DNA of 64,000 bases from Escherichia coli (GTDB lineage Bacteria; Pseudomonadota; Gammaproteobacteria; Enterobacterales; Enterobacteriaceae), in NCBI RefSeq assembly GCF_003334355.1, contig NZ_QOWP01000006.1, one strand, 5' to 3'. The position numbers and the translations under genes are program-made. This document shows positions 16,704 to 46,671 of the stretch, in pieces. The notes below the pieces were generated by a model. It made no database searches. It saw only the letters and a list, made by a program, of their open reading frames with translations, and was not told the DNA's origin. Every line of letters starts with the position of its first letter. Position 1 is the first letter of the stretch.

Positions 16704-16705
16704 TA

Positions 16706-17221: not shown

Positions 17222-17231
17222 TCTCCGTACC

Positions 17232-18239: not shown

Positions 18240-18251
18240 TGATAATTTCCT

Positions 18252-20861: not shown

Positions 20862-20891
20862 AATTAGCTCTGATATTGTCAGATGATTCGG

Positions 20892-21584
20892 TTAGTTTAA
20901 GTTCACTTCTCTGACCGGGGTTACTGAACCATAATCATTAACGGTCTGAAATTTCAGCTTTCCCTGCACTCCTGAGGGTAAGGGAATTTGTGAATTAACT
21001 CTGGGTGCAGCCATAGCATTCCCCAACTTTTGGTTGCCCACTTGTAAGTTAACCAGAGTGACATAAAAAGGTGAGGGATTATGAACATTGATATAGTTAC
21101 CGGATCGCGAAAACTTGAGTGTGTCCGGTGCTTCTGCGGGTAATTCTTGTAATTGAATTAGACGGAGAAATAATTTCATGCGCGATAAAATCGCCAGTTG
21201 CAAAACATTCCTGCCGTTCAATGCATTTTTATCTACCGAAGGGATCGTCTTAACATTCATCCAGAACAGAGACTCACGATCTGCTGCCAGCGGTGGACCG
21301 GTGTAAATAATACGCAAGGTATTTTCGCTTTTGGGTTCACTAACAAACAGTGGCGGTGTAATGATGAATGACTTTTCTTTTACACCGCTGCTGTTTTCAA
21401 TCCACGAATTGACCAGAAAGCGCTCATTGGTATGGCTATTTCTAATCCATACCGCAGTCTGTTTAGCATCAGCGGGATAAATAATACGCGTGGCACCTAA
21501 TGCGATCCCTCCGGCAGCATGGGCGCTGGCCGAAATGATTAAATAAAATATAATGAGCATCAATAACTTTATTTTAGTCATCAT
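20892..21584 (-). CDS. sfmC: SfmC periplasmic fimbrial chaperone
   Basis: 230-aa ORF with signal peptide and PapD-like features. Confidence 0.85.
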
Positions 21585-21803
21585 AGTTAATACGCCTTGT
21601 GTATTCCTGACGGCAAAAATAAGAAATATAAAGAAATGATTGCTTTGGTTTCTTACAACACATCATTCCCTTTTCATTTAATAAAGCGGCATGATACAAA
21701 GTGAACATGATTTCGATTTACATTGCCACCATACCGCTTCAGACAACCGGTACATTACTTTGTTATAAGACGTGATATATAATTCAAAACAACGTGGTTT
21801 TGA

Positions 21804-22346
21804 TTATTCGTATCTCATAATAAAAGTCGCGTCAGCATTTGCTTGCCCTGCTGATGCACTTGTACCGGTGCCTTTATAACGTGCAGAAAAATGAAGAACG
21901 TTGGTCCCGGGGATCAAGTTCTGGTTGGTTGAGAAGCTATTCCCATCAGGTTTGAGAATTGCGGATGTATTATCAAGTATTTCAATACCGACACCCGTTG
22001 CTGTTGTTGTATTGGTACTGGATGCAATGGCCAATAAATTATCATTGATTGCATCAGCCTGACCAGAAAATGCAACGGCAGCATTAGCGGCAACAACAGG
22101 ATCGCAGTCGTTCAACTGAATGGTGAATGGAATTAATGCAGAGGTATTACCAACAGCATTGAAAATATCGGTACGATATTGACCGAGTGTGACAACCTGG
22201 TCTGCCGAGTCAGTATTCACTGAACAGGCAGCATTCACCAGTTCGCCTTCAAAGTGAATTGTACCGCCATCTACAACGGCAGCATAACTACCCGTAGCGG
22301 CGAATAGTGCGGCAGCCAGCGCAGACGAAATAAATCTTAATTTCAT
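21804..22346 (-). CDS. sfmA: SfmA major fimbrial subunit
   Basis: [22 protein letters not shown] signal peptide, 180 aa; start chosen inside longer ORF. Confidence 0.8.
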
Positions 22347-22826
22347 ATATATTCCTTCAATCTCATTTATCGACTCCACATCCGTATATAACCGATTACT
22401 TTATTTAAGACACTGATAGTAGTAAAATTCCTTTTTATCCTCTAAGAATGTCTTAATTGAAAATATGCACTCTATTCTAAAAAATAGAGAGCCCCGTTAG
22501 ATGAATACTTTCGCGCAAAATATATTCAACACAAATATAGACCTGAAGCGGTAAATTACCAGGCTGAAAATTCTTTTTATATTGTCAGGTATTTCTTAAA
22601 TTATCTTAATCCTTAAACAAGGAAATAAATCAGTTCCAGATTTACAACGCCATCATGGACGAAAAATGAAGCTTTCAATCTCAGCGACCTCAGCGACGGT
22701 GCGCCTCACCTTCGCAAGAGGTCGCTTCACGCGATAAATCTGAAACGAAACCTGACAGCGCGCCCCGCTTCTGACAAAATAGGCGCATCCCCTTCGACCT
22801 ACGTAACAGATGGAATCCTCTCTCTG

Positions 22827-23693
22827 ATGGCAGCAAAGATTATTGACGGTAAAACGATTGCGCAGCAGGTGCGCTCTGAAGTTGCTCAAAAAGTTCAGGC
22901 GCGTATTGCAGCCGGACTGCGGGCACCAGGACTGGCCGTTGTGCTGGTGGGTAGTAACCCTGCATCGCAAATTTATGTCGCAAGCAAACGCAAGGCTTGT
23001 GAAGAAGTCGGGTTCGTCTCCCGCTCTTATGACCTCCCGGAAACCACCAGCGAAGCGGAGCTGTTGGAGCTTATCGATGCGCTGAATGCCGACAACACCA
23101 TCGATGGCATTCTGGTTCAACTGCCGTTACCGGCGGGTATTGATAACGTCAAAGTGCTGGAACGTATTCATCCGGACAAAGACGTGGACGGTTTCCATCC
23201 TTATAACGTCGGTCGTCTGTGCCAGCGCGCGCCGCGTCTGCGTCCCTGCACCCCGCGCGGTATCGTCACGCTGCTTGAGCGTTACAACATTGATACCTTC
23301 GGCCTCAACGCCGTGGTGATTGGCGCATCGAATATCGTCGGTCGTCCAATGAGCATGGAACTGTTGCTCGCAGGTTGCACCACTACCGTGACTCACCGTT
23401 TCACTAAAAATCTGCGTCACCACGTAGAAAATGCCGATCTGTTGATCGTTGCCGTCGGCAAGCCGGGCTTTATTCCTGGTGACTGGATCAAAGAAGGCGC
23501 AATTGTGATTGATGTCGGCATCAACCGTCTGGAAAATGGCAAAGTTGTGGGCGACGTCGTGTTTGAAGACGCGGCTAAACGCGCCTCATACATTACGCCT
23601 GTTCCGGGCGGCGTTGGCCCGATGACGGTTGCCACGCTGATTGAAAACACGCTTCAGGCGTGCGTTGAATATCATGATCCACAGGGTGAGTAA
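22827..23693 (+). CDS. folD: bifunctional methylenetetrahydrofolate dehydrogenase/cyclohydrolase
   Basis: 288-aa [18 protein letters not shown]..; conserved FolD. Confidence 0.9.
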
Positions 23694-23694
23694 C

Positions 23695-23907
23695 ATGGCG
23701 ACATTTTCTTTAGGTAAACATCCGCACGTTGAGCTGTGCGATTTGCTGAAACTGGAAGGCTGGAGCGAAAGCGGCGCGCAGGCGAAAATCGCGATTTCCG
23801 AAGGCCAGGTGAAAGTCGACGGTGCGGTTGAAACGCGCAAACGCTGCAAAATCGTCGCCGGTCAGACAGTGAGTTTTGCAGGTCACAGCGTACAGGTTGT
23901 TGCCTGA
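23695..23907 (+). CDS. ybcJ: S4-like RNA-binding protein YbcJ
   Basis: 70 aa from MATFSLGKHP..; immediately after folD. Confidence 0.8.
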   Translation: MATFSLGKHPHVELCDLLKLEGWSESGAQAKIAISEGQVKVDGAVETRKRCKIVAGQTVSFAGHSVQVVA

Positions 23908-24014
23908 TCCCTTTCCCGGCCTGTATCAACAGGCCGGTTCTCTTTTCAGACTTTTGCCCTCTACGCCCCGTTCATCCATGCTGATAGCATCGACATTTTG
24001 CCGAAGCGACCATC

Positions 24015-24536
24015 ATGCCAACCGTTATTACGCACGCCGCCGTTCCCCTATGCATTGGTTTAGGGTTGGGTTCGAAAGTCATCCCTCCGCGTCTGTTATT
24101 TGCCGGAATCATCCTGGCGATGCTGCCCGACGCCGACGTATTGTCGTTTAAATTTGGCGTTGCTTACGGCAATGTTTTTGGTCATCGCGGGTTTACCCAT
24201 TCGCTGGTGTTTGCGTTTGTTGTCCCGCTGTTATGTGTGTTTATTGGACGCCGATGGTTCAGGGCTGGGCTGATTCGCTGCTGGCTGTTTTTAACCGTCT
24301 CGTTGCTATCGCACAGCTTGCTGGATTCGGTAACCACTGGCGGTAAAGGCGTTGGCTGGCTGTGGCCGTGGTCAGATGAACGCTTTTTCGCTCCCTGGCA
24401 GGTGATAAAAGTCGCGCCGTTTGCATTGTCTCGTTACACCACGCCGTACGGGCATCAGGTGATTATTTCTGAATTGATGTGGGTGTGGTTGCCGGGGATG
24501 CTACTGATGGGAATGTTGTGGTGGCGCAGACGATAA
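24015..24536 (+). CDS. ybcI: inner-membrane metal-dependent hydrolase family protein YbcI
   Basis: 173-aa hydrophobic ORF, synteny. Confidence 0.75.
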   Translation: MPTVITHAAVPLCIGLGLGSKVIPPRLLFAGIILAMLPDADVLSFKFGVAYGNVFGHRGFTHSLVFAFVVPLLCVFIGRRWFRAGLIRCWLFLTVSLLSHSLLDSVTTGGKGVGWLWPWSDERFFAPWQVIKVAPFALSRYTTPYGHQVIISELMWVWLPGMLLMGMLWWRRR

Positions 24537-24571
24537 CCGGATGCGAAAACTCGCATCCGGCAATAGCGCAA

Positions 24572-25957
24572 TTACTTACGACGCCAGGTGGTCCCTTGCG
24601 GGCCATCTTCCAGCACGATCCCCATCTCGTTAAGACGATCACGCGCCGCATCCGCCGCCGCCCAGTCTTTCGCTTTACGGGCATCCAGACGCTGTTGAAT
24701 TAACGCTTCAATCTCAGCCACTTCGCTGTCGTCTGCCTGCGCGCCGCTTTGCAGGAACGCTTCCGGTTCTTGCTCCAGCAGGCCCAATACAGCGGAAAGT
24801 TTACGCAGGTGAGATGCCATTGCATTCGCCGCTGCCATATCTTCTGCTTTCAGACGGTTTACTTCACGCGCCATATCAAACAGTACGGAATAGGCTTCCG
24901 GGGTGTTGAAATCGTCGTCCATCGCTTCAATAAAGCGCGCTTCAAACGCTTCGCCACCGGCAGGCGCAACGGTTTTATCTGTGCCGCGCAGCGCAGTGTA
25001 GAGACGCTCCAGCGCCGCACGCGCCTGCTTCAGGTTCTCTTCGCTGTAGTTCAACTGGCTGCGATAGTGGCCCGACATCAGGAAGTAACGCACGGTTTCC
25101 GCGTCGTAGTATTTCAGCACATCGCGCACGGTAAAGAAGTTACCCAGCGATTTGGACATCTTCTCGCGGTCAACCATCACCATTCCGGAGTGCATCCAGT
25201 AGTTCACATACTGACCATCATGGGCACAGGTGGACTGCGCGATTTCGTTCTCGTGGTGCGGGAACATCAGGTCTGAACCGCCGCCGTGGATATCAAAGTG
25301 GTTACCCAGCTGCTTGCAGTTCATGGCCGAACATTCAATGTGCCAGCCAGGACGACCCGCGCCCCACGGAGACGGCCAGCTCGGTTCGCCCTCTTTCGAC
25401 ATCTTCCACAGAACGAAGTCCATCGGGTTGCGTTTGTCATCAACCACGTCAACGCGCGCGCCAGCCTGCAGCTGGTCGAGATCCTGACGCGACAGCACGC
25501 CATAAGTTGGATCGGTCGGGACGTCAAACATCACGTCGCCGTTGTCCGCCACATAAGCGTGACCTTTGGCGATCAGTTGTTCAGTGAGTTCAATAATTTC
25601 TGCGATATGGTGCGTCGCGCGCGGCTCCATATCCGGGCGCAGAATGTTCAAAGCATCAAAATCTTTGTGCATTTCGGCGATCATGCGATCCACCAGCGCC
25701 ACAAAGCTTTCGCCATTTTCATTGGCGCGTTTGATGATTTTGTCGTCGATATCGGTAATGTTGCGCACATACTTCAGTTTATAGCCGAGGAAACGCAGAT
25801 AGCGCGCAACCACGTCAAAAGCAACAAAGGTACGCCCGTGACCGATATGACAGAGATCGTAAACGGTGATTCCACACACGTACATGCCGACTTCCCCGGC
25901 GTGAATAGGCTTAAATTCCTCTTTTTGGCGTGTCAGAGTATTGAAGATTTTTAGCAT
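24572..25957 (-). CDS. cysS: cysteine--tRNA ligase
   Basis: 461 aa, HIGH (CHIGHGR) and KMSKS motifs present. Confidence 0.95.
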
Positions 25958-26130
25958 CGAAGATTCCGTTTAGACATGTGTGGGTAATTGAGTTGCGTAT
26001 AATACCCATATTTCCCGCGCGAATCAGCATACATTGCGTGATGATCCGATCGTGCGGTTATGCTATAACACCACCCTATATATGACCCGAACTGGGTTGA
26101 AGCACCAATCAAACGGAACAGGATGCAAAA

Positions 26131-26625
26131 ATGGTTACTTTCCACACCAATCACGGCGATATTGTCATCAAAACTTTTGACGATAAAGCACCTGAAACAG
26201 TTAAAAACTTCCTGGACTACTGCCGCGAAGGTTTTTACAACAACACCATTTTCCACCGTGTTATCAACGGCTTTATGATTCAGGGCGGCGGTTTTGAACC
26301 GGGCATGAAACAAAAAGCCACCAAAGAACCGATCAAAAACGAAGCCAACAACGGCCTGAAAAATACCCGTGGTACGCTGGCAATGGCACGTACTCAGGCT
26401 CCGCACTCTGCAACTGCACAGTTCTTCATCAACGTGGTTGATAACGACTTCCTGAACTTCTCTGGCGAAAGCCTGCAAGGTTGGGGCTACTGCGTGTTTG
26501 CTGAAGTGGTTGACGGCATGGACGTGGTAGACAAAATCAAAGGTGTTGCAACCGGTCGTAGCGGTATGCACCAGGACGTGCCAAAAGAAGACGTTATCAT
26601 TGAAAGCGTGACCGTTAGCGAGTAA
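26131..26625 (+). CDS. ppiB: peptidyl-prolyl cis-trans isomerase B
   Basis: 164-aa cyclophilin, [16 protein letters not shown].. Confidence 0.9.
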
Positions 26626-26627
26626 TC

Positions 26628-27350
26628 GTGGCGACACTCTTTATTGCAGATCTTCATCTCTGCGTGGAAGAACCGGCGATCACCGCCGGTTTTCTGCGTT
26701 TTTTAGCGGGGGAAGCCCGCAAGGCCGACGCGCTGTATATTCTTGGCGATCTGTTTGAAGCATGGATTGGCGACGACGATCCCAACCCACTCCATCGCAA
26801 GATGGCGGCGGCGATCAAAGCGGTGTCCGATTCCGGCGTTCCCTGTTATTTCATTCATGGCAACCGTGATTTTCTGCTCGGCAAACGCTTTGCCCGTGAA
26901 AGTGGCATGACGTTATTGCCGGAAGAAAAGGTGCTCGAACTTTATGGTCGCCGGGTGTTGATTATGCATGGCGACACGCTGTGCACCGATGACGCGGGTT
27001 ATCAGGCTTTTCGCGCCAAGGTCCACAAACCCTGGCTGCAGACGCTATTCCTCGCCCTGCCGTTGTTTGTGCGCAAACGCATTGCCGCGCGAATGCGCGC
27101 GAACAGCAAAGAAGCCAACAGCAGTAAATCGCTGGCGATCATGGACGTTAACCAAAACGCGGTGGTCAGTGCGATGGAAAAACATCAGGTGCAATGGCTG
27201 ATCCACGGGCATACCCATCGCCCGGCGGTGCATGAACTTATCGCCAATCAGCAACCTGCTTTTCGCGTGGTACTGGGTGCCTGGCATACGGAAGGTTCAA
27301 TGGTGAAAGTCACGGCGGATGACGTTGAGCTGATTCATTTTCCGTTTTAA
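26628..27350 (+). CDS. lpxH: UDP-2,3-diacylglucosamine hydrolase
   Basis: 240 aa, calcineurin-like motifs (GDLFE, GNRD), GTG start. Confidence 0.9.
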
Positions 27351-27380
27351 AAAACCCGCAACTTTGCTGATTTCACAGCC

Positions 27381-27396
27381 ACGCAACCGTTTTCCT
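27381..27396 (+). promoter_or_regulatory. PurR operator (PUR box) in purEK promoter
   Basis: ACGCAACCGTTTTCCT matches PUR box consensus ACGCAAACGTTTTCNT about 70 bp upstream of purE. Confidence 0.6.
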
Positions 27397-27467
27397 TGCT
27401 CTCTTTCCGTGCTATTCTCTGTGCCCTCTAAAGCCGAGAGTTGTGCACCACAGGAGTTTTAAGACGC

Positions 27468-27977
27468 ATGTCTTCCCGCAATAATCCGGCGCGTGTCGCC
27501 ATCGTGATGGGGTCCAAAAGCGACTGGGCTACCATGCAGTTCGCCGCCGAAATCTTCGAAATCCTGAATGTCCCGCACCACGTTGAAGTGGTTTCTGCTC
27601 ACCGCACCCCCGATAAACTGTTCAGCTTCGCCGAAAGCGCCGAAGAGAACGGTTATCAGGTGATTATTGCGGGCGCAGGCGGCGCAGCGCATCTGCCAGG
27701 CATGATTGCCGCCAAAACGCTGGTGCCGGTGCTGGGCGTGCCAGTACAGAGCGCCGCACTGAGCGGTGTCGATAGCCTCTACTCCATCGTACAAATGCCG
27801 CGCGGCATTCCGGTGGGTACGCTGGCGATTGGTAAAGCTGGCGCGGCAAACGCGGCGTTACTGGCAGCACAAATTCTTGCGACTCATGATAAAGAACTGC
27901 ACCAGCGTCTGAATGACTGGCGCAAAGCCCAGACCGACGAAGTGCTGGAAAACCCGGACCCGCGAGGTGCGGCATGA
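27468..27977 (+). CDS. purE: N5-carboxyaminoimidazole ribonucleotide mutase
   Basis: 169 aa from [20 protein letters not shown]. Confidence 0.9.
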
Positions 27978-29041
27978 AACAGGTTTGCGTCCTCGGTAAC
28001 GGGCAGTTAGGCCGTATGCTGCGTCAGGCAGGCGAACCGTTAGGCATTGCTGTCTGGCCAGTCGGGCTGGACGCTGAACCGGCGGCGGTGCCTTTTCAAC
28101 AAAGCGTGATTACCGCTGAGATCGAACGCTGGCCGGAAACCGCATTAACCCGCGAGCTGGCGCGCCATCCGGCCTTTGTGAACCGCGATGTGTTCCCGAT
28201 TATTGCTGACCGTCTGACTCAGAAGCAGCTTTTCGATAAGCTCCACCTGCCGACTGCACCGTGGCAGTTACTTGCCGAACGCAGCGAGTGGCCTGCGGTG
28301 TTTGATCGTTTAGGTGAGCTGGCGATTGTTAAGCGTCGCACTGGTGGCTATGACGGTCGCGGTCAATGGCGTTTACGCGCCGATGAAACCGAGCAGTTAC
28401 CGGCTGAATGCTACGGCGAATGTATTGTCGAGCAGGGCATAAACTTCTCTGGTGAAGTGTCGCTGGTTGGCGCGCGCGGCTTTGATGGCAGTACCGTGTT
28501 TTATCCGCTGACGCATAACCTGCATCAGGACGGTATTTTGCGCACCAGCGTCGCTTTCCCGCAGGCCAATGCGCAGCAGCAAGCGCAAGCCGAAGAGATG
28601 CTTTCGGCGATTATGCAGGAGCTGGGCTATGTGGGCGTGATGGCGATGGAGTGTTTTGTCACCCCGCAAGGTCTGTTGATCAACGAACTGGCACCGCGTG
28701 TGCATAACAGCGGTCACTGGACACAAAACGGTGCCAGCATCAGCCAGTTTGAGCTGCATCTGCGGGCGATTACCGATCTGCCGTTACCGCAACCAGTGGT
28801 GAATAATCCGTCGGTGATGATCAATCTGATTGGTAGCGATGCGAATTATGACTGGCTGAAATTGCCGCTGGTGCATCTGCACTGGTACGACAAAGAAGTC
28901 CGTCCGGGGCGTAAAGTGGGGCATCTGAATTTGACCGACAGCGACACATCGCGTCTGACTGCGACGCTGGAAGCCTTAATCCCGCTGCTGCCGCCGGAAT
29001 ATGCCAGCGGCGTGATTTGGGCGCAGAGTAAGTTCGGTTAA
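27974..29041 (+). CDS. purK: N5-carboxyaminoimidazole ribonucleotide synthase
   Basis: 355 aa ATP-grasp, overlaps purE stop. Confidence 0.9.
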
Positions 29042-29057
29042 CTGGTGCTCTATTCTT

Positions 29058-29147
<90 letters not shown>

Positions 29148-29177
29148 TGGTGCACCGATTGCTGGATGCTCTCATCA

Positions 29178-30071
29178 CTACAGCGAAATACAGGTCCCCG
29201 CTTCGCCCGCCAGCGTCTCTTCAATTCGCGATAACGCCCCAATCCACGCGGGTTTACCACAGCTTCTGACATAACCACTCACCGCCGTTACCTTCGGCCC
29301 CATCGAACCATCGGCTTTGGCAAATGGCGCTAACTCATCCGGTGTGGCATGGCGAATGGCGCGTTGCTGCGGCGTTCCCCAGTTTTCATATACCGCATCA
29401 GCATCAGTGAGGATCACCAGCCCATCGGCGTTAATCTGCTCAGCGAGCAACGCAGCAGCGAGATCTTTATCAATCACCGCTTCACTCCCTGCCCCATCTT
29501 CCGTCACAGGCACACCGCCGCCGCCACTGCAAATCACCACATGCCCCTCTTTGAGCAACAACTCGATGGCTTCGCTGTCGAGAATTTTACGCGGTTGCGG
29601 AGACGCCACCACCCGGCGCAAATATTTACCATCACGTTTCATCTGCCAGCCGTAAGCCGCTTCCAGTGCCTCTTGTTCTTCTGGCTGATAAACCGGACCA
29701 ATAAATTTCTCTGGCTGCAAAAACGCCGGATCATCAGGCGAAACCTCAATGCGCGTCAGCACCGTCGTCACGGGCGGCATCTGCGGCTGTGCGCTCAAAC
29801 TCTGCGCCAGCATATAGCCAATCATCCCCTGACTTTCTGCCACCAGCACATCCAGCGGATACGGTTCTACCTCTTTCCACGCCAGATTCTGCAATGCCAG
29901 CAGCCCCACCTGCGGCCCGTTGCCGTGAACAATCGCCAGCCGATAAGAACGGGCCAGGCGCGCCAGCGCGGGTACAGCACTGGCGATATTGCGATATTGA
30001 TTTTCTGCCGTCAGCGCCTCACCGCGCTGAAGCAAGGCATTGCCCCCAAGAGCTACAACCAGTGTTTTCAT
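29178..30071 (-). CDS. ybcF: carbamate kinase-like protein
   Basis: 297 aa, carbamate kinase family features; synteny. Confidence 0.8.
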
Positions 30072-30883
30072 GGTTTTCCTTGTAATAATTGTTGACCAAG
30101 CCAGAACCCCAGCAGGGTATCTGCCCCTGACGTATGCCCCAGCGCCAGCAGCGAATCAATCGCAACAGCGGTACGTTTCGGGCAACTCAGAGCATGAACA
30201 AAGTGCAGGAGTGGCGAGGCGAAATATCCTTGCGCGGCATAACGTAAATAACTGACGCTCACCGCTGTGGTAACGAGTTGCAGATTGTCGGAACAGGCAA
30301 AAAACTGGCGACCGGAGCGCGCATCTAAAGCGCCATAATACCAGGCCGCCAGCAGCATTCCGCTCAGCGTGTCATCATGACTCGGCGTTAATCCGGGGCC
30401 TTTACCCAGCCAGTGCCGCCAGTCGGTCTTAACGCCATTGAGCGCGGCCTGAAAACAGTGACGAAACTGGCGTAACTCAGCAGGCAGCGGATCGCTTGCC
30501 GCCAACGCCAGTGGCCCGAAAAGCCCGGTTTCCTCCGCGCGTTGCATCCATGCAGCTGCAAGTGGTTGAGGATGCGCAGGCGGCGTAATACGCAGCAAAC
30601 AATAACGCTGTGGCTGTTTAACCGTGAAACGCCCGAGGCGAATCCCTTGAGTCACAACCTGTGGTCGTTCATTGCCGCATAATCCACCGCATAACGCATC
30701 GAATTGCGCACGGCGAAGCATCCATCCTCCGGGGCCGAAACCACTACCCTGACGATGCAGCGTTAACAGTTCGCCGCTTTCCGTCATCAGGTTAATCGCC
30801 CGCCGCCACACTCCCGCTAACCGCCAGGACTGGCGATAATTCGGTGCGCTACTACTGGCAAGCAGAGGATGGATGATCGTCAT
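30068..30883 (-). CDS. ylbF: YlbF (DUF2877) protein
   Basis: 271 aa from [12 protein letters not shown]; start chosen inside longer track ORF. Confidence 0.7.
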
Positions 30884-30893
30884 TGCGCGTTCC

Positions 30894-32153
30894 TCAACCA
30901 ATCCCCATGCTTTCAGCCAGTGCTTCCAGCGCCTGTTCAAAACACGCCAGCGGTGCCCGCACAGTGCCTGCGCCAATCTGCCCGATCCCCGCCTCTTTAT
31001 GGGCGATACCGGTATTGATGAGTGGCGTAATGCCGGTTTCTACCACGCGACGAATGTCCAGTCCCAGGCACGCGCCCTGAAAATCCCAGCCTGGGATCTG
31101 CAACTGCATATTGCGCTCAAGGTAAATTTCCGCCATCTCTTCAGATACCGCTCTGGCCGCTTCCATGCCACCCGCACCGACAAAGCGCGTTACGCCAGGC
31201 GCTGCGATCATTGCCGCACCTCCGATACCAAAGGTTTCGGTAATCGCGCTATCGCCCATATCCGGGTTCGCCTGCTCCTGCGAGAAGCCGGTGAAAAACA
31301 GACCTTGCGGAGTGTTTACAGGCGCAGTAAACCAGCGTTCGCCCAGCCCGCTTACCCGAATCCCGAACATATTGCCGTTGCGGGTCATTGCCGTGACGAT
31401 GCTGCCTGCGCGGATCATCGCGCCAGCATCCATCGCCGCCTTGCAGTAAGCCATCGCGAGGTTGAGGAAGAACTGATCGGTCACGCTGAGGAAATCCATC
31501 ACTTCGGCGATGTGCTGTTTATCATGATCGAGGCGAGCAATTTGTGGGGCCAGCGCACGCATTAACAGTGCAGAGGAAGCAATATTGCGTTGATGGAACT
31601 CATCGCCCATCGTAATGCCCTGCGCCATCATCGCCGTGAGATCGATACCGCGCTCCATGCGCCCCAGCGCCGCGCTTAATACTGGCATTAACACATCGCG
31701 CATCCAGCGATGGCGAGTCAGGACATCTTCGCCGTAAGCGCCAAAACGCATCACTTTGCCGATACCTTCGTTGAGGTTGCAGTACGCCCGGTTGCCGTCG
31801 GTCACGTTCTCGACCACCAGCATCGGCATACTGGCAGAAGTAATACCGCCCATTGGACCGACGGCATTCACATGGTGACAAGGAATGAAGTTCACTTCCC
31901 CCTGCTCCAGTATTGCCAGCGCCTGCGCTTCATCTTTCACCCAGCCTTCGAACAGACATGCGCCCACGCACGCCCCTTTCATGGGTCCGGTCATCTCCTG
32001 CCAGCGCATTGGCGGCCCGGCGTGAAGCAGTGTTTTGCCCTCGTTTAGTTCGCTGATAAGTGAAGAAGCCGGTTGCACATCCAGCCAGTGTGGACGAGCG
32101 CGACGAATTTGTTCGATAACCGCAGCATTGGCTTGCGCTACTGATGTAAACAT
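30894..32153 (-). CDS. ylbE: YlbE (DUF1116) protein, intact
   Basis: Uninterrupted 419-aa ORF. Confidence 0.75.
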
Positions 32154-32162
32154 GGGAACCCC

Positions 32163-33830
32163 TTATTGCAAACGTTCTAATAAACGAGCCAGTTTTTTAT
32201 TGCCGCCGGCGACTGGCGACCATTGGTAATGCACAACCGGTTTGCTGGCGCTTTGTAGCTCCAGCGCAAAGCTGCGTAATCCGATGTTAATCACGGCGAC
32301 GTTTTCCAGTAATGACGGTGTGTGTTGCTGAGTGGCAGGCGAAAGCGGACGAATCAGTGCCGCCGCCAGCAAGGTGGCTTCCGGCAGCGAACTCACTACC
32401 GCGATCCCTGCATCTTCCAGCGTGGCGATTTGCTGCGAGCGGCATTGCGGGTCACGTTCAGTGCCTGTCACCGTGGCAATGGCATACAGTGGTTGATTGT
32501 CTGAAAGCGCGGCACATGCTTTTTGCCAGGCGCTTACCAGCGAGGCGGCAGGATCGGCGGTCGCACCGAAGCCAATCACGACATCAAGCAGCAATACGCG
32601 CACTTGCGGTTTAGCGCCGAGATCGGCAATTAACTGGTTGCGTAAGGCTGGGTCGATCATCGGATGGGGACGCCCGACGGTGTAGAAATCATCGCCGAGG
32701 TCAATAATCTGGTGACCATCAGCGTCGAGCATCATGCCGTGATGATGGGTATCGTCGGCTTCCACGCCAAGGTGTCCAGCAAGTAATCCCGCCGCTTCGG
32801 CAGCCAGCGTACCGCCGGTATACAAACCGCAAATAAATCCGCTGCTGACAGGCGCTATTGCGTTACGTCGCGCCGTGACACGTGAAAGCAGGCAAGCCAG
32901 GCGTGCGGCCTCATCCAGCGAGGAGGCAAACCAGACATTCTCGTCGCGGGCCACCGCCGGGGTATAACCTAAAAACAGCGCCACCGTCGGTTTGCCGGTT
33001 GCTTTCATGGCATTAACAATTTTCAGACGCACAGCTTCGGCAGGCGGTTTTGAAACAAATGCCAGCACTTCGCTTTTCTCGTCTGCACTGAGCATTTCCA
33101 GCGCCGTCAGCGCACTGATGCCGCCTACTTCACGGCTGAGGTCGCGCCCGCCAAGGCCAATCGCGTGAGTAATTCCCTCCCCTGCCAGCGCAATCTGCGA
33201 GCACAGCTCCTGAATCCCGGTACCGGAAGCGCCAATGACGCCAATGTTGCCTTCCGGCATCACGTTAGCAAAAGCCAGCGGCGTGCCGGCAATCATCGAC
33301 GTACCGCAGTCCGGCCCCATCACCAGCAAGCCTTTTTCTCGCGCGCGGGTTTTAAGTTGGATTTCATCTTCCAGCGTGACGTTATCGGAGAACATCATCA
33401 CGTTGAGGTTGCGATCCAGCGCCTGATTCGCCAGCTCCGCCGCATACTCGCCAGCCACTGAAATCAGCGCCAGACTGGCATCGGGTAATTTCTGACAGGC
33501 GCTGTCCCAGCGACGCACCTGCGTCAACGCCTGGCTGCTGCCTGACCCCTGCGCCAGTTGTTTTAGCGCCTCTTCAAGCTGCTGCATAATCGCCTGCGCG
33601 ATCCCCGCATCCGCCGCTTCGCTACGAATTGCCACGCAAATATCGTTCGGCGTGGCGTTATTAAAATCGTCATGCCAGAAACCTGTGGTATCTAATAACG
33701 CTTTATTGGCGGGCGTACCCATCATTACGGAAACATCATCAACATTTTCTGATTCGCTGAGTTTTCGTGAAATAATCATTAAACTGACCGAATCCTGAAA
33801 ACACCCTTTTTTAATAAAGGCGTGGATCAT
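32163..33830 (-). CDS. fdrA: FdrA succinyl-CoA synthetase-like protein
   Basis: 555-aa ORF with CoA-ligase-like glycine-rich motifs. Confidence 0.8.
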   Translation of the reverse strand: MIHAFIKKGCFQDSVSLMIISRKLSESENVDDVSVMMGTPANKALLDTTGFWHDDFNNATPNDICVAIRSEAADAGIAQAIMQQLEEALKQLAQGSGSSQALTQVRRWDSACQKLPDASLALISVAGEYAAELANQALDRNLNVMMFSDNVTLEDEIQLKTRAREKGLLVMGPDCGTSMIAGTPLAFANVMPEGNIGVIGASGTGIQELCSQIALAGEGITHAIGLGGRDLSREVGGISALTALEMLSADEKSEVLAFVSKPPAEAVRLKIVNAMKATGKPTVALFLGYTPAVARDENVWFASSLDEAARLACLLSRVTARRNAIAPVSSGFICGLYTGGTLAAEAAGLLAGHLGVEADDTHHHGMMLDADGHQIIDLGDDFYTVGRPHPMIDPALRNQLIADLGAKPQVRVLLLDVVIGFGATADPAASLVSAWQKACAALSDNQPLYAIATVTGTERDPQCRSQQIATLEDAGIAVVSSLPEATLLAAALIRPLSPATQQHTPSLLENVAVINIGLRSFALELQSASKPVVHYQWSPVAGGNKKLARLLERLQ

Positions 33831-34146
33831 AACAACTCCTTAAAAATTGCACCCATGGCAATTGCACGAGCAGTGTTAATGTGGCGATTACGGTATCGAT
33901 GACAACGGGTAAATAAGGTGATGAATATCACACAGGGATTATTAACAAAAGAATTCAAATAACCGCCATGCTATTACGTGTTATTTTTTAATAAGCGTGG
34001 TTGTTTTAAAAACCAGGTTAAAAGCGAGCGGATTATCAAATAAATTCTAACTATATTTTTTTGCCTGTCTGGATCACATAATCCAGATATTTTCCCTGTA
34101 TGTTAATTGCAGTCATGCTTCACACCGTCGTTAAAAAGGAAGACAG

Positions 34147-35196
34147 ATGAAAATCAGTCGGGAAACACTCCACCAGCTAATTGAGAATAAACTCTGCCAG
34201 GCTGGGTTAAAACGTGAGCACGCTGCAACCGTGGCTGAAGTATTGGTTTACGCCGATGCCAGAGGGATCCACTCTCATGGCGCGGTGCGCGTGGAATACT
34301 ACGCGGAACGCATTTCAAAAGGCGGCACCAACCGCGAACCGGAGTTTCGTCTTGAGGAAACCGGGCCGTGCTCGGCAATTTTACATGCCGACAATGCCGC
34401 CGGACAGGTCGCGGCGAAAATGGGTATGGAACATGCCATCAAAACCGCCCAGCAAAATGGCGTTGCGGTGGTCGGTATCAGCCGGATGGGTCACAGCGGC
34501 GCAATCTCTTATTTTGTGCAGCAGGCAGCCCGCGCCGGATTCATTGGCATTTCGATGTGCCAGTCCGATCCAATGGTGGTGCCGTTTGGCGGCGCGGAAA
34601 TTTACTACGGTACTAACCCCCTGGCCTTTGCCGCGCCGGGAGAAGGCGACGAGATCCTTACCTTTGATATGGCGACTACCGTACAGGCATGGGGAAAAGT
34701 GCTCGACGCCCGCTCGCGTAATATGTCTATCCCGGATACCTGGGCGGTCGATAAAAACGGTGTACCAACAACCGATCCGTTCGCGGTACATGCTCTGCTC
34801 CCCGCCGCCGGGCCAAAAGGGTATGGCCTGATGATGATGATTGACGTCCTCTCAGGCGTCTTACTCGGCTTACCGTTCGGGCGACAGGTTAGTTCGATGT
34901 ATGACGATTTACACGCAGGGCGTAATTTGGGGCAATTACATATAGTTATTAATCCGAACTTTTTCTCCTCCAGCGAATTATTCCGTCAACATCTTAGCCA
35001 GACCATGCGCGAATTAAATGCCATTACCCCCGCGCCCGGTTTTAACCAAGTTTATTATCCCGGACAGGATCAGGATATTAAACAACGCAAAGCCGCCGTC
35101 GAAGGCATCGAAATTGTTGATGATATTTACCAGTATTTAATTTCCGACGCGCTTTATAACACGTCATACGAAACGAAAAATCCCTTTGCGCAATAA
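34147..35196 (+). CDS. allD: ureidoglycolate dehydrogenase
   Basis: 349 aa, Ldh_2-family. Confidence 0.85.
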   Translation: MKISRETLHQLIENKLCQAGLKREHAATVAEVLVYADARGIHSHGAVRVEYYAERISKGGTNREPEFRLEETGPCSAILHADNAAGQVAAKMGMEHAIKTAQQNGVAVVGISRMGHSGAISYFVQQAARAGFIGISMCQSDPMVVPFGGAEIYYGTNPLAFAAPGEGDEILTFDMATTVQAWGKVLDARSRNMSIPDTWAVDKNGVPTTDPFAVHALLPAAGPKGYGLMMMIDVLSGVLLGLPFGRQVSSMYDDLHAGRNLGQLHIVINPNFFSSSELFRQHLSQTMRELNAITPAPGFNQVYYPGQDQDIKQRKAAVEGIEIVDDIYQYLISDALYNTSYETKNPFAQ

Positions 35197-35295
35197 TTAT
35201 TGAGACAGGACTTTCTTATGATTACACATTTTCGTCAAGCCATAGAAGAAGCGCTGCCCTAGCTTTCCTCATTTGGCGCTGACCCAACGGGTGGG

Positions 35296-36453
35296 ATGAC
35301 CCGTTTACTTTATTCGCCGGAATGGCTGGAAACCCAGCAGCAATTTAAAAAAAGAATGGCAGCAAGCGGGCTGGAAACACGTTTCGATGAAGTGGGGAAT
35401 TTATACGGTCGCCTGAGTGGCACCGAATATCCACAGGAAGTGGTTCTGAGCGGTTCGCATATCGATACCGTGGTTAACGGCGGTAACCTCGACGGGCAAT
35501 TCGGCGCGCTGGCGGCGTGGCTGGCAATTGACTGGTTGAAAACGCAATACGGCGCGCCGCTACGTACGGTCGAAGTGGTGGCGATGGCAGAAGAAGAAGG
35601 CAGCCGCTTCCCGTATGTCTTCTGGGGCAGTAAAAATATCTTTGGGCTGGCGAATCCTGACGACGTGCGGAATATCTGTGATGCCAAAGGAAATAGTTTT
35701 GTCGATGCGATGAAGGCTTGCGGATTTACTCTGCCGGACGCCCCGCTAACTCCGCGTCAGGATATTAAAGCCTTTGTCGAACTGCATATCGAACAGGGCT
35801 GTGTGCTGGAAAGTAATGGGCAATCAATTGGCGTGGTGAATGCAATTGTCGGGCAACGTCGCTATACGGTGACGCTGAACGGCGAATCAAACCATGCAGG
35901 CACCACGCCGATGGGTTATCGTCGTGATACGGTTTACGCTTTCAGTCGCATTTGCCATCAGTCGATCGAAAAAGCGAAAAAGATGGGCGACCCGCTGGTT
36001 CTGACCTTTGGGAAAGTAGAGCCGCGCCCGAATACGGTGAATGTGGTGCCGGGTAAAACCACGTTCACCATTGATTGTCGTCATACCGACGCCGCCGTGC
36101 TGCGTGATTTCACCCAACAGTTAGAAAACGACATGCGGGCGATTTGCGATGAAATGGACATTGGTATTGATATCGATTTATGGATGGACGAAGAACCCGT
36201 GCCGATGAATAAGGACCTGGTCGCCACCCTGACAGAATTGTGTGAAAGTGAAAAACTGAATTACCGGGTGATGCACAGTGGTGCCGGGCACGACGCGCAA
36301 ATTTTCGCGCCTCGCGTGCCGACCTGCATGATTTTCATTCCCAGCATCAACGGGATCAGCCATAACCCGGCGGAACGCACCAATATTACCGACCTTGCCG
36401 AAGGGGTCAAAACGTTGGCACTCATGCTTTATCAACTTGCCTGGCAGAAATAA
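35296..36453 (+). CDS. allC: allantoate amidohydrolase, longest uninterrupted frame (upstream native-looking start at 35218 is cut off by an in-frame TAG)
   Basis: 385-aa ORF from an internal Met; ATG at 35218 with 14 sense codons then TAG at 35260-35262, same frame. Confidence 0.8.
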   Translation: MTRLLYSPEWLETQQQFKKRMAASGLETRFDEVGNLYGRLSGTEYPQEVVLSGSHIDTVVNGGNLDGQFGALAAWLAIDWLKTQYGAPLRTVEVVAMAEEEGSRFPYVFWGSKNIFGLANPDDVRNICDAKGNSFVDAMKACGFTLPDAPLTPRQDIKAFVELHIEQGCVLESNGQSIGVVNAIVGQRRYTVTLNGESNHAGTTPMGYRRDTVYAFSRICHQSIEKAKKMGDPLVLTFGKVEPRPNTVNVVPGKTTFTIDCRHTDAAVLRDFTQQLENDMRAICDEMDIGIDIDLWMDEEPVPMNKDLVATLTELCESEKLNYRVMHSGAGHDAQIFAPRVPTCMIFIPSINGISHNPAERTNITDLAEGVKTLALMLYQLAWQK

Positions 36454-36463
36454 GGAGTCATAA

Positions 36464-37249
36464 ATGGGATATTTAAATAACGTCACCGGTTACCGCGATG
36501 ATTTACTGGCTAACCGTGCGATTGTGAAACACGGTAATTTCGCACTGTTAACCCCGGACGGTCTGGTAAAAAATATTATTCCGGGCTTTGAAAATTGTGA
36601 CGCGACAATCCTCTCCACGCCAAAGCTGGGTGCCTCTTTTGTTGATTATCTGGTCACACTGCATCAAAACGGCGGCAACCAACAGGGCTTCGGTGGCGAA
36701 GGCATTGAAACGTTCCTGTATGTGATCACTGGAAATATCACTGCCAAAGCCGAAGGCAAAACATTTGCCTTAAGCGAAGGTGGCTATCTTTATTGCCCGC
36801 CAGGCTCCTTAATGACGTTTGTTAACGCCCAGGCCGAAGACAGCCAAATCTTTTTATATAAGCGCCGCTATGTTCCGGTAGAAGGCCATGCACCGTGGCT
36901 GGTTTCTGGCAATGCCAGCGAACTGGAACGCATTCACTATGAAGGTATGGATGATGTGATCCTGCTGGATTTTCTGCCCAAAGAGTTAGGTTTTGATATG
37001 AACATGCATATCCTCTCTTTTGCACCAGGTGCCAGCCATGGTTATATCGAAACACATGTTCAGGAACACGGTGCCTATATTCTTTCCGGTCAGGGGGTTT
37101 ATAACCTCGACAATAACTGGATCCCGGTGAAAAAAGGCGATTACATCTTTATGGGCGCTTATTCTTTACAGGCTGGTTATGGTGTAGGGCGTGGTGAAGC
37201 GTTCAGCTATATTTACTCGAAAGATTGCAACCGCGACGTAGAGATTTAA
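36464..37249 (+). CDS. allE: ureidoglycine aminohydrolase (cupin)
   Basis: 261 aa, synteny after allC. Confidence 0.8.
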   Translation: MGYLNNVTGYRDDLLANRAIVKHGNFALLTPDGLVKNIIPGFENCDATILSTPKLGASFVDYLVTLHQNGGNQQGFGGEGIETFLYVITGNITAKAEGKTFALSEGGYLYCPPGSLMTFVNAQAEDSQIFLYKRRYVPVEGHAPWLVSGNASELERIHYEGMDDVILLDFLPKELGFDMNMHILSFAPGASHGYIETHVQEHGAYILSGQGVYNLDNNWIPVKKGDYIFMGAYSLQAGYGVGRGEAFSYIYSKDCNRDVEI

Positions 37250-37291
37250 GTCATACCACTCGCCTGATTATTTTTAGCTATGTTGGATTTT

Positions 37292-37318
37292 GCCACGGTT
37301 TATACCGTGGCTTTTTTT
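37292..37318 (+). terminator. Rho-independent terminator after allE
   Basis: GCCACGGTTTATACCGTGGC hairpin followed by TTTTTTT. Confidence 0.7.
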
Positions 37319-37476
37319 GTAACATTGCCTGATGCGCTTCGCTTATCAGGCCTACATGATCTCTGCAATATATAGAATTTGCGCGATTTTCAGGAAGGAT
37401 ATAGTACTCATGCCGCATCCGGCATGAGTACTGCGCTCTTATACGAAATAAATAGCATCCGCTTTAAAGGCAAGAG

Positions 37477-38622
37477 TCAGTTTTTAATTCCCTGACCTAT
37501 TTTAATGGCGCAGGCAATATTTCGCGCGCTGTTGAAGAGATTGATTTCACCGCTGGCGAGTACTTCGGCTAAAGGTGCCAGACGTGGCAAAATGCTGAAT
37601 ACCGCATCAATGCCATACTGGTGCACCACTTCCACGCCATCACCCAATACGCCAGCAATCCCAATCACCGGTACATTAAACTGCTTCGCCACCGACGCCA
37701 CACCCAGCGGCGCTTTACCGCCTGCCGTTTGCGAGTCGATGCGCCCTTCCCCGGTAATCACCAGTGCTGCGCCCTGCACTGCCTGCGCAAGATTGACCGC
37801 ATTCAACACAATCTCAATACCTGGTTTAATATCCGCATTGAGAAATACCGCCGCCGCAATACCCATACCGCCCGCAGCGCCGCCGCCCGCCATCTGGCAG
37901 ACGTTGATTTCAGTTTGCTGTTGTAAAACACGGGCGTAATTTTGCAGCCCCTGTTCCAGCTCTTCGACCATTTCCGGCGTTGCCCCTTTTTGCGGGCCAA
38001 ACACCGCCGCCGCGCCGCGTGCCCCTACCAGCGGGTTATCAACGTCACATGCTACTTCAATATGGCAATTCGCCAGACGCGGATCGCATTCATCCATCTC
38101 AATGCTTGCCACGCGCGCTAAATTACCGCCGTTAGCCACCAGCACCTGACCGTCGGCATCAAGGAAACGCACACCGAGCGCCTGCGCCATGCCCATACCG
38201 CCGTCGACCGTCGCACTGCCGCCAATGCCGAGAATAATATGGCGAATGCCGTTATCCAGCGCATGACGAATTAACTCCCCCGTACCAAAACTGGAGGCCA
38301 GCAACGGATTACGCTTTTCAGGCGCGACCAGCATCAGGCCACTTGCTGCCGCCATCTCAATCACCGCCGTTTTCCCGTCGCCGGTAAGGCCATAAAAAGC
38401 ATTCACTGTTTCGCCCATCGGCCCGCAGACTTCAAGCGTCACGATGTTGCCGCCCGTCGCGGCGACCATCGCATCCACCGTTCCTTCGCCGCCATCCGCT
38501 ATCGGCAAACAGATATAGTGCGCATCGGGAAAGAGGGTCGAAAACCCGGCTTTAATTGCCTGGCAACATTTTTCTGCACTTAAGCTCTCTTTAAAAGAGT
38601 CTGGCGCAATGACAATCTTCAT
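37477..38622 (-). CDS. glxK: glycerate 3-kinase
   Basis: 381 aa from [16 protein letters not shown]. Confidence 0.85.
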
Positions 38623-38643
38623 TATCAATCCTTTTTCAACAAA

Positions 38644-39945
38644 TTATTCGATGCGTTCCCACGGAATAAGATTATCCATAAGAACAGCCAGTAAAATCCC
38701 GACCAATAAGCCGTTACTGAGCAGAGGACGCAGCGTTAATGGAAGGTCTTGCAGATACACAGGCGGTAATGCCATTAAAAATATGCCGACAAATAACGGC
38801 AATGCGAGTCGATAAATATTGCGAGCGGTAAAGGTTATTTGCTGGCTAAACACCAGCGCGGAAAAGAGTAAAGGCAGATAAGAAACCAGCATGACCGCGC
38901 TACTCACGGGTAAAGGGATACTGCAAAACAGTCGTGTGAGTGCCGGAACCAGCGCCACCAGCAGGCAAATAACGCTGCCATAAATAAACGAACGCCGCGT
39001 GTAATCGCCAGTCTGGGTTAATAAACCAATGGATGAAACAAACGGTGAAAATGGAATTACCGCCAGCGGTACGGTTATCAGCGTCATAAATCCGGTCGCC
39101 ACAAAGCTACGACGATAACGCGTATTCCCCGCGCCCTGCTGCGGATAAAAAACATCCGTGCCCCGAATCGCACCGTAGGTATTGCTGATATTCACCAGAC
39201 CTGTAATCACCGCCGTCAGAATAATTCCCGGCGACAAAGCACCGCCACTGCCGAGCGGGAACCACTGCCAGTGCAACTCACCGGAGAGCGAATGCGAAGA
39301 AGGAAAGCAAAAGTACCACAACAACCAGCCGGTTATCGTACCGACCAGCAGGCCATAACGGGCAAAACGTTGCGGCAGAAAGATAATCATCGCCAGTACC
39401 AGGCACATCACCGCCACCGAGAGCGCGAACGGTGGTAACTGAATTTTAAAATTTGGGTCGGCTATGCCAAACGGCAGCCCGAGCATACCTTTGAAAAAGA
39501 TAGTGGTCAGCTGCGCGCCCAGCATCAACATAAACAAGACCATCACCGACGGCGTAAATAACCGTGCCAGGCGATGGCCTAATCCGCTAAAACCAATCAA
39601 CATCGTCAGCACGCCGGAGAGTGCAATCCCCACCGCCAGACTGGTAGCGATATCGTTGATCGGTGTCCCGCGCGATGCTTCGCCAAGGGTGATAGTAAGG
39701 ATGGTTCCCCACCACAGGCCACCCGGCCCTTCCATAATAGCGCGACGATGACCGCAGAACGCCTGAGCGAAGCAGGCCAGTGCGGTAGCAAGAAAAGCAT
39801 ATTGCGTGAGCGTAAGCAGGCTACTTTGCGGCAACTGAAAAGCAGAAAGTAGCGTAGGAGGAACCACAACCGTGTTGCAAAAAATAAAGAAAAACCACTG
39901 AAATCCTGATAACAGGCTTTCGCGGCTGACTGCAAAATTGAACAT
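38644..39945 (-). CDS. ybbY: putative purine/uracil permease family protein YbbY
   Basis: ~433-aa polytopic membrane ORF, synteny. Confidence 0.75.
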   Translation of the reverse strand: MFNFAVSRESLLSGFQWFFFIFCNTVVVPPTLLSAFQLPQSSLLTLTQYAFLATALACFAQAFCGHRRAIMEGPGGLWWGTILTITLGEASRGTPINDIATSLAVGIALSGVLTMLIGFSGLGHRLARLFTPSVMVLFMLMLGAQLTTIFFKGMLGLPFGIADPNFKIQLPPFALSVAVMCLVLAMIIFLPQRFARYGLLVGTITGWLLWYFCFPSSHSLSGELHWQWFPLGSGGALSPGIILTAVITGLVNISNTYGAIRGTDVFYPQQGAGNTRYRRSFVATGFMTLITVPLAVIPFSPFVSSIGLLTQTGDYTRRSFIYGSVICLLVALVPALTRLFCSIPLPVSSAVMLVSYLPLLFSALVFSQQITFTARNIYRLALPLFVGIFLMALPPVYLQDLPLTLRPLLSNGLLVGILLAVLMDNLIPWERIE

Positions 39946-40001
39946 AAACACACCTTAACCGGAGAATGCCCGCCGCAAGGACGGGCATTGCAGGGGCCAG
40001 A

Positions 40002-41363
40002 TTACTGCTGATGTTTAAGGATAAATTGACCTTTCGGCGCAACAGGGAAGCCCTGTTCAATGTCGTAAATCACATCACCACGTAAGATGGTTTTCGTGAT
40101 ACGCGCGCCAATGGTACGGCCAACATACGGGCTGACTTTGTGGCGATATTCCAGATCGTCATTGGTAAGAACATAGCTGCTATTCGGCTGAATGAAGACG
40201 AAGTCGGCATCTTTTCCTGGGGCGATACGGCCTTTTTGCTGCAGACCGAAAATATCTGCTGCGTTAGTCGCCATTAATTTGCCGAACATTGGCAGAGACA
40301 TTCCGCGTTTCTGTACCGCTTCATCGAACATCACGTCCATACAGTTTTGCAGACCGGCAATACCGCCCCATGCTTCCATGATGTTGCCGGCTTTCATTTC
40401 CGGAGGGCATGGTGAGTGGTCGGAAACCAGGCAGTCGATTTCACCGTTAAACAGTTTTTCCCACATGCCTTTCTGGTTTTCCAGATCGCGGATCGGCGGT
40501 GAACACTTCGCCAGAGTACCGATTTCTTCGAACTGATCGGTATCCAGTACAAAGTAATGCGGGCAGAATTCACAAGTAACATCCTGACCTTCCTGACGTG
40601 CACGAATCACTTCTTCAACACCTTCTGGGCTGCTGATATGGCAAATGTGCAGACGGCAACCGGCAACTTTCGCCAGGTACAGTACGCGGCGAATCGCTTC
40701 CATTTCGGTAAATACCGGACGCGAAGCCACATAGTCATGGGCAGTTACACGACCTTCACTTTTCGCTTCTTCGCCCAGTGCATCACAGATCAGCGCGTTT
40801 TCGCAGTGCACCAGCACCGGCTGCCCCAGTTCGCCCAGCTTCTGCGCACCTTTGAAGAACTGCCAGTCGTTTACATCACGGAAGTCGTTGTCGATACCGC
40901 GATCGCCACAGGTCGCAACGAAGCATTTGAAGCCGACAACGCCCACTTCATCCAACTCATGCAGACGATCAATGTTGTAAGACACCAGGCCACCGAGTTG
41001 TGCCGCATCGATAGTCAGCTTGCCTTTAGCGGCATCGAACTTCAGTTCAATTGAAGCACGGTCAACCGTTGCAGGCAGCTGGTTGAGCGGCATTTCGATC
41101 ATGGTGGTGATACCACCTTTTGCCGCTGCGCGAGTACCGGTTTCATAACCTTCCCAGTGGCTACGACCCGGTTCAGAAATATGGGTGTGCGCATCAACCA
41201 TGCCCGGCGAAACCACCAGACCAGACGCATCCATAACTTCTTTTGCATCGCCCAGATCCTGACCGATAGCAGCAATTTTTCCGCCTTTAACGGCGATATC
41301 TACAACGCGAGCTTCGTTTTCTAAAATAACGGTGCCGTTTTTAATGATTAAATCAAAAGACAT
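40002..41363 (-). CDS. allB: allantoinase
   Basis: 453 aa amidohydrolase (DAHTH metal-binding motif). Confidence 0.9.
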
Positions 41364-41422
41364 AACAAACTCCTTGTAAAATACAGATTGGTTTTTAACT
41401 CAATGTTCAATATCGGGATTAA

Positions 41423-42877
41423 TTAACCTATGGTTTTTTGCTCTCCTGTTTTTTCTGCTGTTGTACGTTTCTTTAATAAGGCGTAGGCCGCAAAGGCGAC
41501 GATGACGCCGACAAACCATGAAACACGCGATAACGGTTCCATAAAGTGAATAAACTTACCGCCAAGAGATAAAATAACGGCCACCAGAGTTACTGAAAAC
41601 GCAGTGAGGTTAAAACCGTTATCGTAATATTTATAATCGCCAGGTGCGGTATACAGTTCATCAAGATTAATTTGTCCGCGCATCACCACAAAATAATGCG
41701 CCATCATGACACCAATTACCGGACCAAGCATTCCGCCGATAATATCGAGGAAAAGATAAATGCTGTCCTGATTTTCCATTAATTTCCACGGGCAGATCAG
41801 CAAGCTGATAATACTGGCAATCAGTACGCCGTTTTTATAGGTCAGTTTTGTCGGTGCAATGGCGGCAATCTGATAACCGGCTGGAATAATATTACCGGTC
41901 GCGTTAGTGGAGATAGTTGTCATCAGAATAACCAGTACCGCAAAGAACGAGGCGAACAGGCTGTCCCAACGCTGAACAATATCCAGCACGTTCCAGGTAT
42001 CAGCGCCGTAGTGAATACTGACTCCGGCAATAATACATACCCCGGCGACCGCAAACAGAATATAGGCCACAACTAAACCCAGCGTTTGCCCCAGCGCCTG
42101 CTCACGAAACGAGTGGGCGTTTTGCGTAAAGTCGGATGCGCTCACCGCCGGTGCCGCCCAGACCGCAACTACCGCGTTAATCACCACCAGGAACAGGAAG
42201 CCACCGTTTTCTGCTTTCTGAATACCGCTCGGAATGTAGTCAAAGATTGGACCGATCCCGACCAGTGAAATCGCCCAAATCGCCATACCGCCGAAAACGA
42301 TATAGATGCACGGGTTAAGAATGGCAGTGAATTTATTTAAAACTTTGCCACCGCCAAAACCTATACCAACGTTGACCAGCCAGAAGATTAAGAAAGTAAT
42401 TAAGCCCGGTAGAGAAAGGCCTAACAGAGTGAAATCACCACCGAGAGTTAAAAATCCCGGCCAGATTTTGCCAATCAGAATCAAGCAGGCCAGTGACCCC
42501 GCGTAACATTGCAAACCAAACCACATGATGGCGGCAATTCCGCCCCTTAATAATCCGGGAAACAGTGCACCACGTACACCGTAAGAAGCACGCAGGATCA
42601 TGGCAAAAGGCACACCGTATTTACTGCCCGCAGCACCGTTTAATACCATTACCGCGGCAATGAAAAAGGCGCTGAGGATAATTGCCAGCATAATACTAAA
42701 GGTAGACAAGCCGAGAATAAAAAAGCCGCCGACCATCACATAATTGGGAACGTTATGAACCGAACCCATCCATAAGGTAAAATAGTTAAATGTTTTCCAG
42801 GTCCGCTGGCTTTGCGTTTTCGGCAATAGATCTTCGCTATAGCCGCGTTGCTGGAATAGTTTTCTCTGATGTTCCAT
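41423..42877 (-). CDS. ybbW: allantoin permease (NCS1 family)
   Basis: 484-aa membrane transporter, synteny. Confidence 0.85.
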   Translation of the reverse strand: MEHQRKLFQQRGYSEDLLPKTQSQRTWKTFNYFTLWMGSVHNVPNYVMVGGFFILGLSTFSIMLAIILSAFFIAAVMVLNGAAGSKYGVPFAMILRASYGVRGALFPGLLRGGIAAIMWFGLQCYAGSLACLILIGKIWPGFLTLGGDFTLLGLSLPGLITFLIFWLVNVGIGFGGGKVLNKFTAILNPCIYIVFGGMAIWAISLVGIGPIFDYIPSGIQKAENGGFLFLVVINAVVAVWAAPAVSASDFTQNAHSFREQALGQTLGLVVAYILFAVAGVCIIAGVSIHYGADTWNVLDIVQRWDSLFASFFAVLVILMTTISTNATGNIIPAGYQIAAIAPTKLTYKNGVLIASIISLLICPWKLMENQDSIYLFLDIIGGMLGPVIGVMMAHYFVVMRGQINLDELYTAPGDYKYYDNGFNLTAFSVTLVAVILSLGGKFIHFMEPLSRVSWFVGVIVAFAAYALLKKRTTAEKTGEQKTIG

Positions 42878-43045
42878 AAATCCCTCTTAATTTCACGTAT
42901 CGAATAACGTTGTTTTAATCTAGCTATGAGGAACAAATAAAATAAAAATATTATTTTTAATACTGAAGCAACATCTTTGGCTGCTTTCTTTTTTAATATT
43001 GCTGGCCGATTCATTTTCTGATATCGGCCATTTTTATTGCGGGTA

Positions 43046-43924: not shown

Positions 43925-44023
43925 AATTAACCTCTTTTAAATTTCGCTTTTCCTGAATTCAGACAACACGATCCCCTGCCAACTTAGCGGCCTAAAAAAG
44001 CATTGTCTGAATAGCGTTACGTT

Positions 44024-44800: not shown

Positions 44801-44812
44801 TATTTATCTCCC

Positions 44813-46594: not shown

Positions 46595-46614
46595 TTTATT
46601 CCTACCTCTATTTA

Positions 46615-46631
46615 TTGGAAAATTTTTCCAA
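46615..46631. promoter_or_regulatory. AllR operator in gcl promoter
   Basis: Perfect palindrome TTGGAAAATTTTTCCAA just upstream of gcl. Confidence 0.6.
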
Positions 46632-46646
46632 CTTTCAAATTTTGTC

Positions 46647-46671
46647 AAAAAAACCCGCTCCGCAGAGCGGG
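46647..46671 (-). terminator. Rho-independent terminator after allR
   Basis: Minus strand: CCCGCTC..GAGCGGG hairpin followed by TTTTTTT. Confidence 0.65.

Follow-up and report, generated by a model that had tools for sequence, protein, structure and literature searches.

The open reading frame at positions 30894..32153 on the minus strand of the window, that is, the whole stretch of 64,000 nucleotides of Escherichia coli DNA that was analysed, is almost certainly a normal functional allele of ylbE (allG), intact as it is in practically every E. coli, K-12 among them, with the "K-12 pseudogene" deriving from the pre-2013 reference sequence. The intactness of the gene is already known and ordinary.

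Identity of the Open Reading Frame

The ORF listing and the sequence both gave one uninterrupted frame of 419 aa, with an ATG start and a TGA stop within the coordinates above, and the description of ylbE in an earlier note on this DNA as a single intact 419-aa ORF was exact in position and length, the strand being minus. In a profile search, the product matched Pfam PF06545 ("AllG, oxamate carbamoyltransferase subunit AllG", formerly named DUF1116) with an i-Evalue of 1.1e-97, and all of the model (positions 1–215 of 215) was aligned to residues 87–302 of YlbE, which places the protein in this family as its AllG subunit. The profile search of the window proteins returned no matching NCBIfam model for YlbE or YlbF, whereas YlbE was matched by Pfam. 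PDB entry 3clq, a DUF1116 protein from structural genomics, was also matched (E = 1.8e-111, residues 2–414 of 419) and is a full-length homologue of the window protein, although it comes from another organism, was given no function by its depositors and was solved without AllF or AllH. The gene was found in 5421 of the 5426 complete E. coli genomes, at 95–100% nucleotide identity and annotated ylbE throughout. Of 60 ylbE matches sampled at even intervals along the identity ranking, 59 covered exactly 1260 nt and the sixtieth was partial. RefSeq lists the exact window protein under WP_000495380.1, which strain PSS-12 also encodes.

Comparison with Escherichia coli K-12

In the current MG1655 reference (NC_000913.3), ylbE (b4572, YP_009029994.1) is an ordinary 1260-nt CDS of 419 aa that bears no pseudogene flag, and in an independently assembled MG1655 genome (CP032667) it is likewise an intact 1260-nt CDS. 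The K-12 MG1655 protein (YlbE/AllG, UniProt P77129) shares with the window its start, stop, length, place between fdrA and ylbF and run of five G (G5). Pairwise comparison of the two genes gave 12 substitutions and no indels, so that they are collinear over the full length (1260 nt vs 1260 nt, 419 aa), with 1248 of 1260 nt and 417 of 419 aa identical (99.5% for the protein). Ten of the substitutions are synonymous and two change an amino acid (A72V and S355G, from K-12 to the window), which is the pattern of a gene that purifying selection maintains. The alignment with K-12 suggested in the earlier note as a check showed that the two are not identical by nucleotide (99.05%), yet they are identical at the G5 run (31898–31902), the only site that matters.

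The earlier note had taken the intact gene as evidence against a K-12 source and as a sign that frameshifts at other places in the window represent specific events. Because K-12 ylbE is intact too, equally so in NC_000913.3 and CP032667, its intactness is no evidence against K-12, and it carries no information on frameshifts at other loci. The earlier note was nevertheless right in holding that the DNA does not come from K-12, which is borne out by the substitutions instead; identity between the window and MG1655 was 98.10% over 11.4 kb and 99.26% over 4.6 kb, which is short of the near-identity of a K-12 lineage. The closest complete genome in the collection was that of strain PSS-12 (NZ_AP027697.1), from human faeces in Ecuador, with 29 substitutions in 50 kb (window 7500..57499) and none in ylbE; the window was identical to no complete genome in the collection, and the possibility that it is PSS-12 itself was rejected on account of these 29 substitutions.

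Several other loci of the window were observed in the course of this comparison. Seven of the 29 differences from PSS-12 cluster at 8039–8171, just upstream of nfrB and beside an ISAs1-family transposase. The gene nfrB itself (8676..10912, plus strand) is split into the overlapping ORFs 8676..10244 (522 aa) and 10241..10912 (223 aa), and is annotated as "frameshifted" in PSS-12 too; this split is probably among the "frameshifts elsewhere" to which the earlier note refers. The fimbrial chaperone gene sfmC/fimC (20892..21584, minus strand) is an intact ORF of 230 aa in the window, and in PSS-12 it carries Q129* (a difference at window nt 21200), flagged "internal stop", as well as a second difference, A44T. 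The PGAP annotation of PSS-12 also includes a 27-codon ORF for a "damage-inducible type I toxin DinQ" between mnmH and ybbP, corresponding to window 50790..50873 on the plus strand (43291–43374 of retrieved locus L003).

Origin of the K-12 Pseudogene Annotation

The statement in the earlier note that ylbE of K-12 MG1655 is a frameshifted pseudogene holds for the obsolete references (NC_000913.2/U00096.2) and the W3110 record, but not for the current NC_000913.3. In the W3110 RefSeq sequence (NC_007779.1), ylbE is still flagged "frameshifted", with a length of 1259 nt (547581..548839). A three-way alignment with the window revealed exactly two differences between W3110 and NC_000913.3 within ylbE, located 138 nt apart at W3110 coordinates 547694 and 547832–547835, namely A for G at CDS nt 114 and GGGG (G4) for GGGGG at CDS nt 252–256. 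These sites correspond to minus-strand positions 32040..32040 and 31898..31902 (CCCCC on the plus strand) of the window, where the window has G and G5 as NC_000913.3 does. With G4, the frame of the W3110 gene stops after about 86 codons and the remaining protein lies in another frame. The obsolete MG1655 and W3110 records thus represent the same locus, with the same K-12-type flanks as the window, but they carry GGGG and A at the two sites, and the window has neither feature of this frameshifted allele.

The W3110 record and variant tables in the literature were used to deduce the state of ylbE in U00096.2/NC_000913.2. In a breseq analysis that took NC_000913.2 as reference, the "ylbE pseudogene" was listed with two changes, 547,694 A>G and 547,831 +G, which together make an ORF (PMC5460176); the two W3110 sites coincide with these published changes, the A>G being the difference at CDS nt 114. 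Strain NCM3722 of K-12 likewise "restores" an intact ylbE according to a published variant table. Minor errors in U00096.2 were found by two groups and confirmed by the curators, with fixes due in U00096.3, as described for EcoGene 3.0, which cites Freddolino et al. 2012 and Hayashi et al. 2006 (PMC3531124). Taken together, the alignments and variant tables indicate that the "K-12 ylbE pseudogene" is an artefact of the pre-2013 reference, consisting of one G too few in the G5 run and the nearby A/G difference. In at least two papers on experimental evolution with NC_000913.2 as reference (PMC5460176 and PMC4137714), ylbE is listed among the mutated genes, and these listings are most likely due to the same artefact. 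No paper naming ylbE beside glpR, gatC and crl came up in a literature search for these genes together.

The frequency of G4 was surveyed by querying a 61-mer with GGGG against the complete E. coli genomes, which gave 5,417 matching records. The 61-mer was exact in four of the records listed, W3110 and strains CIT, LIM and CAR (the identity band of ≥99% counts five), and the other listed records, CP032667 included, aligned to it with a one-base gap and so have G5. In W3110 and in the three MG1655-derived records (CIT, LIM and CAR), ylbE is flagged "frameshifted". The CIT record has a length of 4,639,673 and places ylbE at 547581..548839, the coordinates of the W3110 record. Because their coordinates and record length match the old reference, CIT, LIM and CAR would be assemblies guided by the old MG1655 sequence. 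A widespread natural polymorphism was considered as the source of the G4 frameshift and was ruled out, since among the 5417 records an exact match was listed for these four alone, and each of them can be traced back to the old K-12 reference. Among the retrieved loci, the erroneous ylbE lies at 2582–3840 of L002 (NC_007779.1) and at 1280–2538 of L005 (NZ_CP026028.1).

Alternative Explanations

If K-12 truly had a frameshifted ylbE pseudogene, the intact ORF would be a lineage marker setting the window apart from K-12, as the older literature, which treats MG1655 ylbE in this way, and the "frameshifted" flags in W3110 and the three MG1655-derived records would lead one to expect. This is very unlikely, and largely refuted, in view of the intact gene in both NC_000913.3 and CP032667, the additional G recovered in NCM3722 and in resequenced MG1655, the corrections to U00096.3 announced by the curators, and the confinement of G4 to four listed records of 5417, of which the three other than W3110 share the coordinates and length of the old reference; the residual doubt is limited to W3110. 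It was also considered that G4 had arisen by genuine mutation in whichever clone or stock was sequenced during the 1990s–2000s, in which case some K-12 isolates would be ylbE-negative and the G5 run prone to slippage. Slippage is plausible at a homopolymer run, and both differences, 138 nt apart, are common to the old MG1655 and W3110 records; nonetheless, G4 was found in no independently assembled genome among the listed matches from about 5,400, and a pair of linked differences present in both "independent" records is better explained by shared or copied data than by recurrent mutation, so that a stock mutation is regarded as improbable. The conclusion for the window is the same whether G4 is an error or a stock mutation. 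The further idea that the G5 run in allG is a slippage hotspot that occasionally switches off the oxamate branch of allantoin catabolism, the old K-12 "error" being a captured instance, is hardly credible.

A different proposal is that the ylbE frame is open by chance, or belongs to a decaying gene that merely lacks stops. No point was found in its favour, and its probability is practically nil given the Pfam match (E = 1e-97), a protein 99.5% identical to K-12 YlbE, the ratio of 10 synonymous to two non-synonymous changes, the presence of the gene in 5421 of 5426 complete genomes and the intact operon that surrounds it. With its Pfam and PDB matches, near-universal presence and mostly synonymous changes relative to K-12, ylbE is therefore an ordinary E. 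coli core gene and not a chance ORF.

The allFGHK Operon and Its Proposed Function

The gene lies second in a set of four on the minus strand, all of them intact and divergent from allDCE, which constitute the allFGHK operon. Upstream is fdrA/allF (32163..33830, minus strand, 555 aa), with its stop 9 nt before the ylbE ATG (TAAGGGGTTCCCATG) and a product that matched NCBIfam NF004760 (1041 bits vs a cutoff of 433). Downstream are ylbF/allH (30068..30883, minus strand, 271 aa), with its ATG 10 nt past the ylbE stop (TGAGGAACGCGCAATG), and ybcF/allK (29178..30071, minus strand, 297 aa), which encodes the catabolic carbamate kinase, matched NCBIfam NF006926 (621 bits vs a cutoff of 416) and overlaps the ylbF stop with its start by 4 nt (ATGA). 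The junctions accordingly read TAA-GGGGTTCCC-ATG for fdrA/ylbE, TGA-GGAACGCGCA-ATG for ylbE/ylbF and an ATGA overlap for ylbF/ybcF, and such short or overlapping junctions are typical of, and would be expected for, a translationally coupled operon. An ORF of 302 aa was also listed at 30068..30976 (minus strand), with a TTG start inside the 3' end of ylbE; it is a mechanical extension, the annotated ylbF start being the ATG at 30883. The gene order is that of K-12 (b0518-b4572-b0520-b0521), and all four lengths equal the K-12 lengths. The allFGHK gene fdrA and the allDCE gene allD diverge from an intergenic region at 33831..34147, which has 317 nt in the window against 316 nt in K-12 and within which the allF promoter region should lie. 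The cluster adjoins allD-allC-allE inside the allantoin regulon (gcl-hyi-glxR-allW-allB-ybbY-glxK; allA, allR and allS).

The function of these genes was reported by Kim and co-workers, who found that fdrA, ylbE and ylbF, renamed allF, allG and allH, jointly encode oxamic transcarbamylase (OXTCase), that is, oxamate carbamoyltransferase (PMC11326118). Deletion mutants of allF and of allG no longer formed oxamate from allantoin, and an allH mutant formed far less of it, although oxamate production did not return when the allG deletion was complemented from a plasmid (PMC11326118, Table 1). The purified AllF-AllG-AllH proteins of K-12 showed OXTCase activity, converting oxamate and carbamoyl phosphate to oxalurate with Km values of 1.3 mM for carbamoyl phosphate and 36.9 mM for oxamate, and the enzyme was without similarity to the ATCase/OTCase family (PMC11326118). 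AllK (YbcF) was identified as a catabolic carbamate kinase (PMC9843812), and the allFGHK operon is reportedly under the control of AllS and ArcA (PMC12535856).

On this basis, AllF/FdrA and AllG/YlbE together with AllH/YlbF of the window would form the three subunits of oxamate carbamoyltransferase (EC 2.1.3.5), with the four allFGHK genes read as a single minus-strand operon. When allantoin serves as a nitrogen source under anaerobic conditions, AllFGH would convert oxalurate and phosphate to oxamate and carbamoyl phosphate, and AllK/YbcF, acting downstream, would convert carbamoyl phosphate and ADP to ATP, NH3 and CO2. The window allele (V72, G355) is predicted to be active from its 99.5% identity to the K-12 protein.

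Implications

An intact ylbE is unfit as a marker to separate a strain from K-12. The finding has housekeeping value only, in that the one-base error in ylbE survives in the RefSeq sequence of W3110 and in a small number of reference-guided assemblies. Since its role as the AllG subunit is now known, the gene is better annotated as allG than as encoding a DUF1116 protein.
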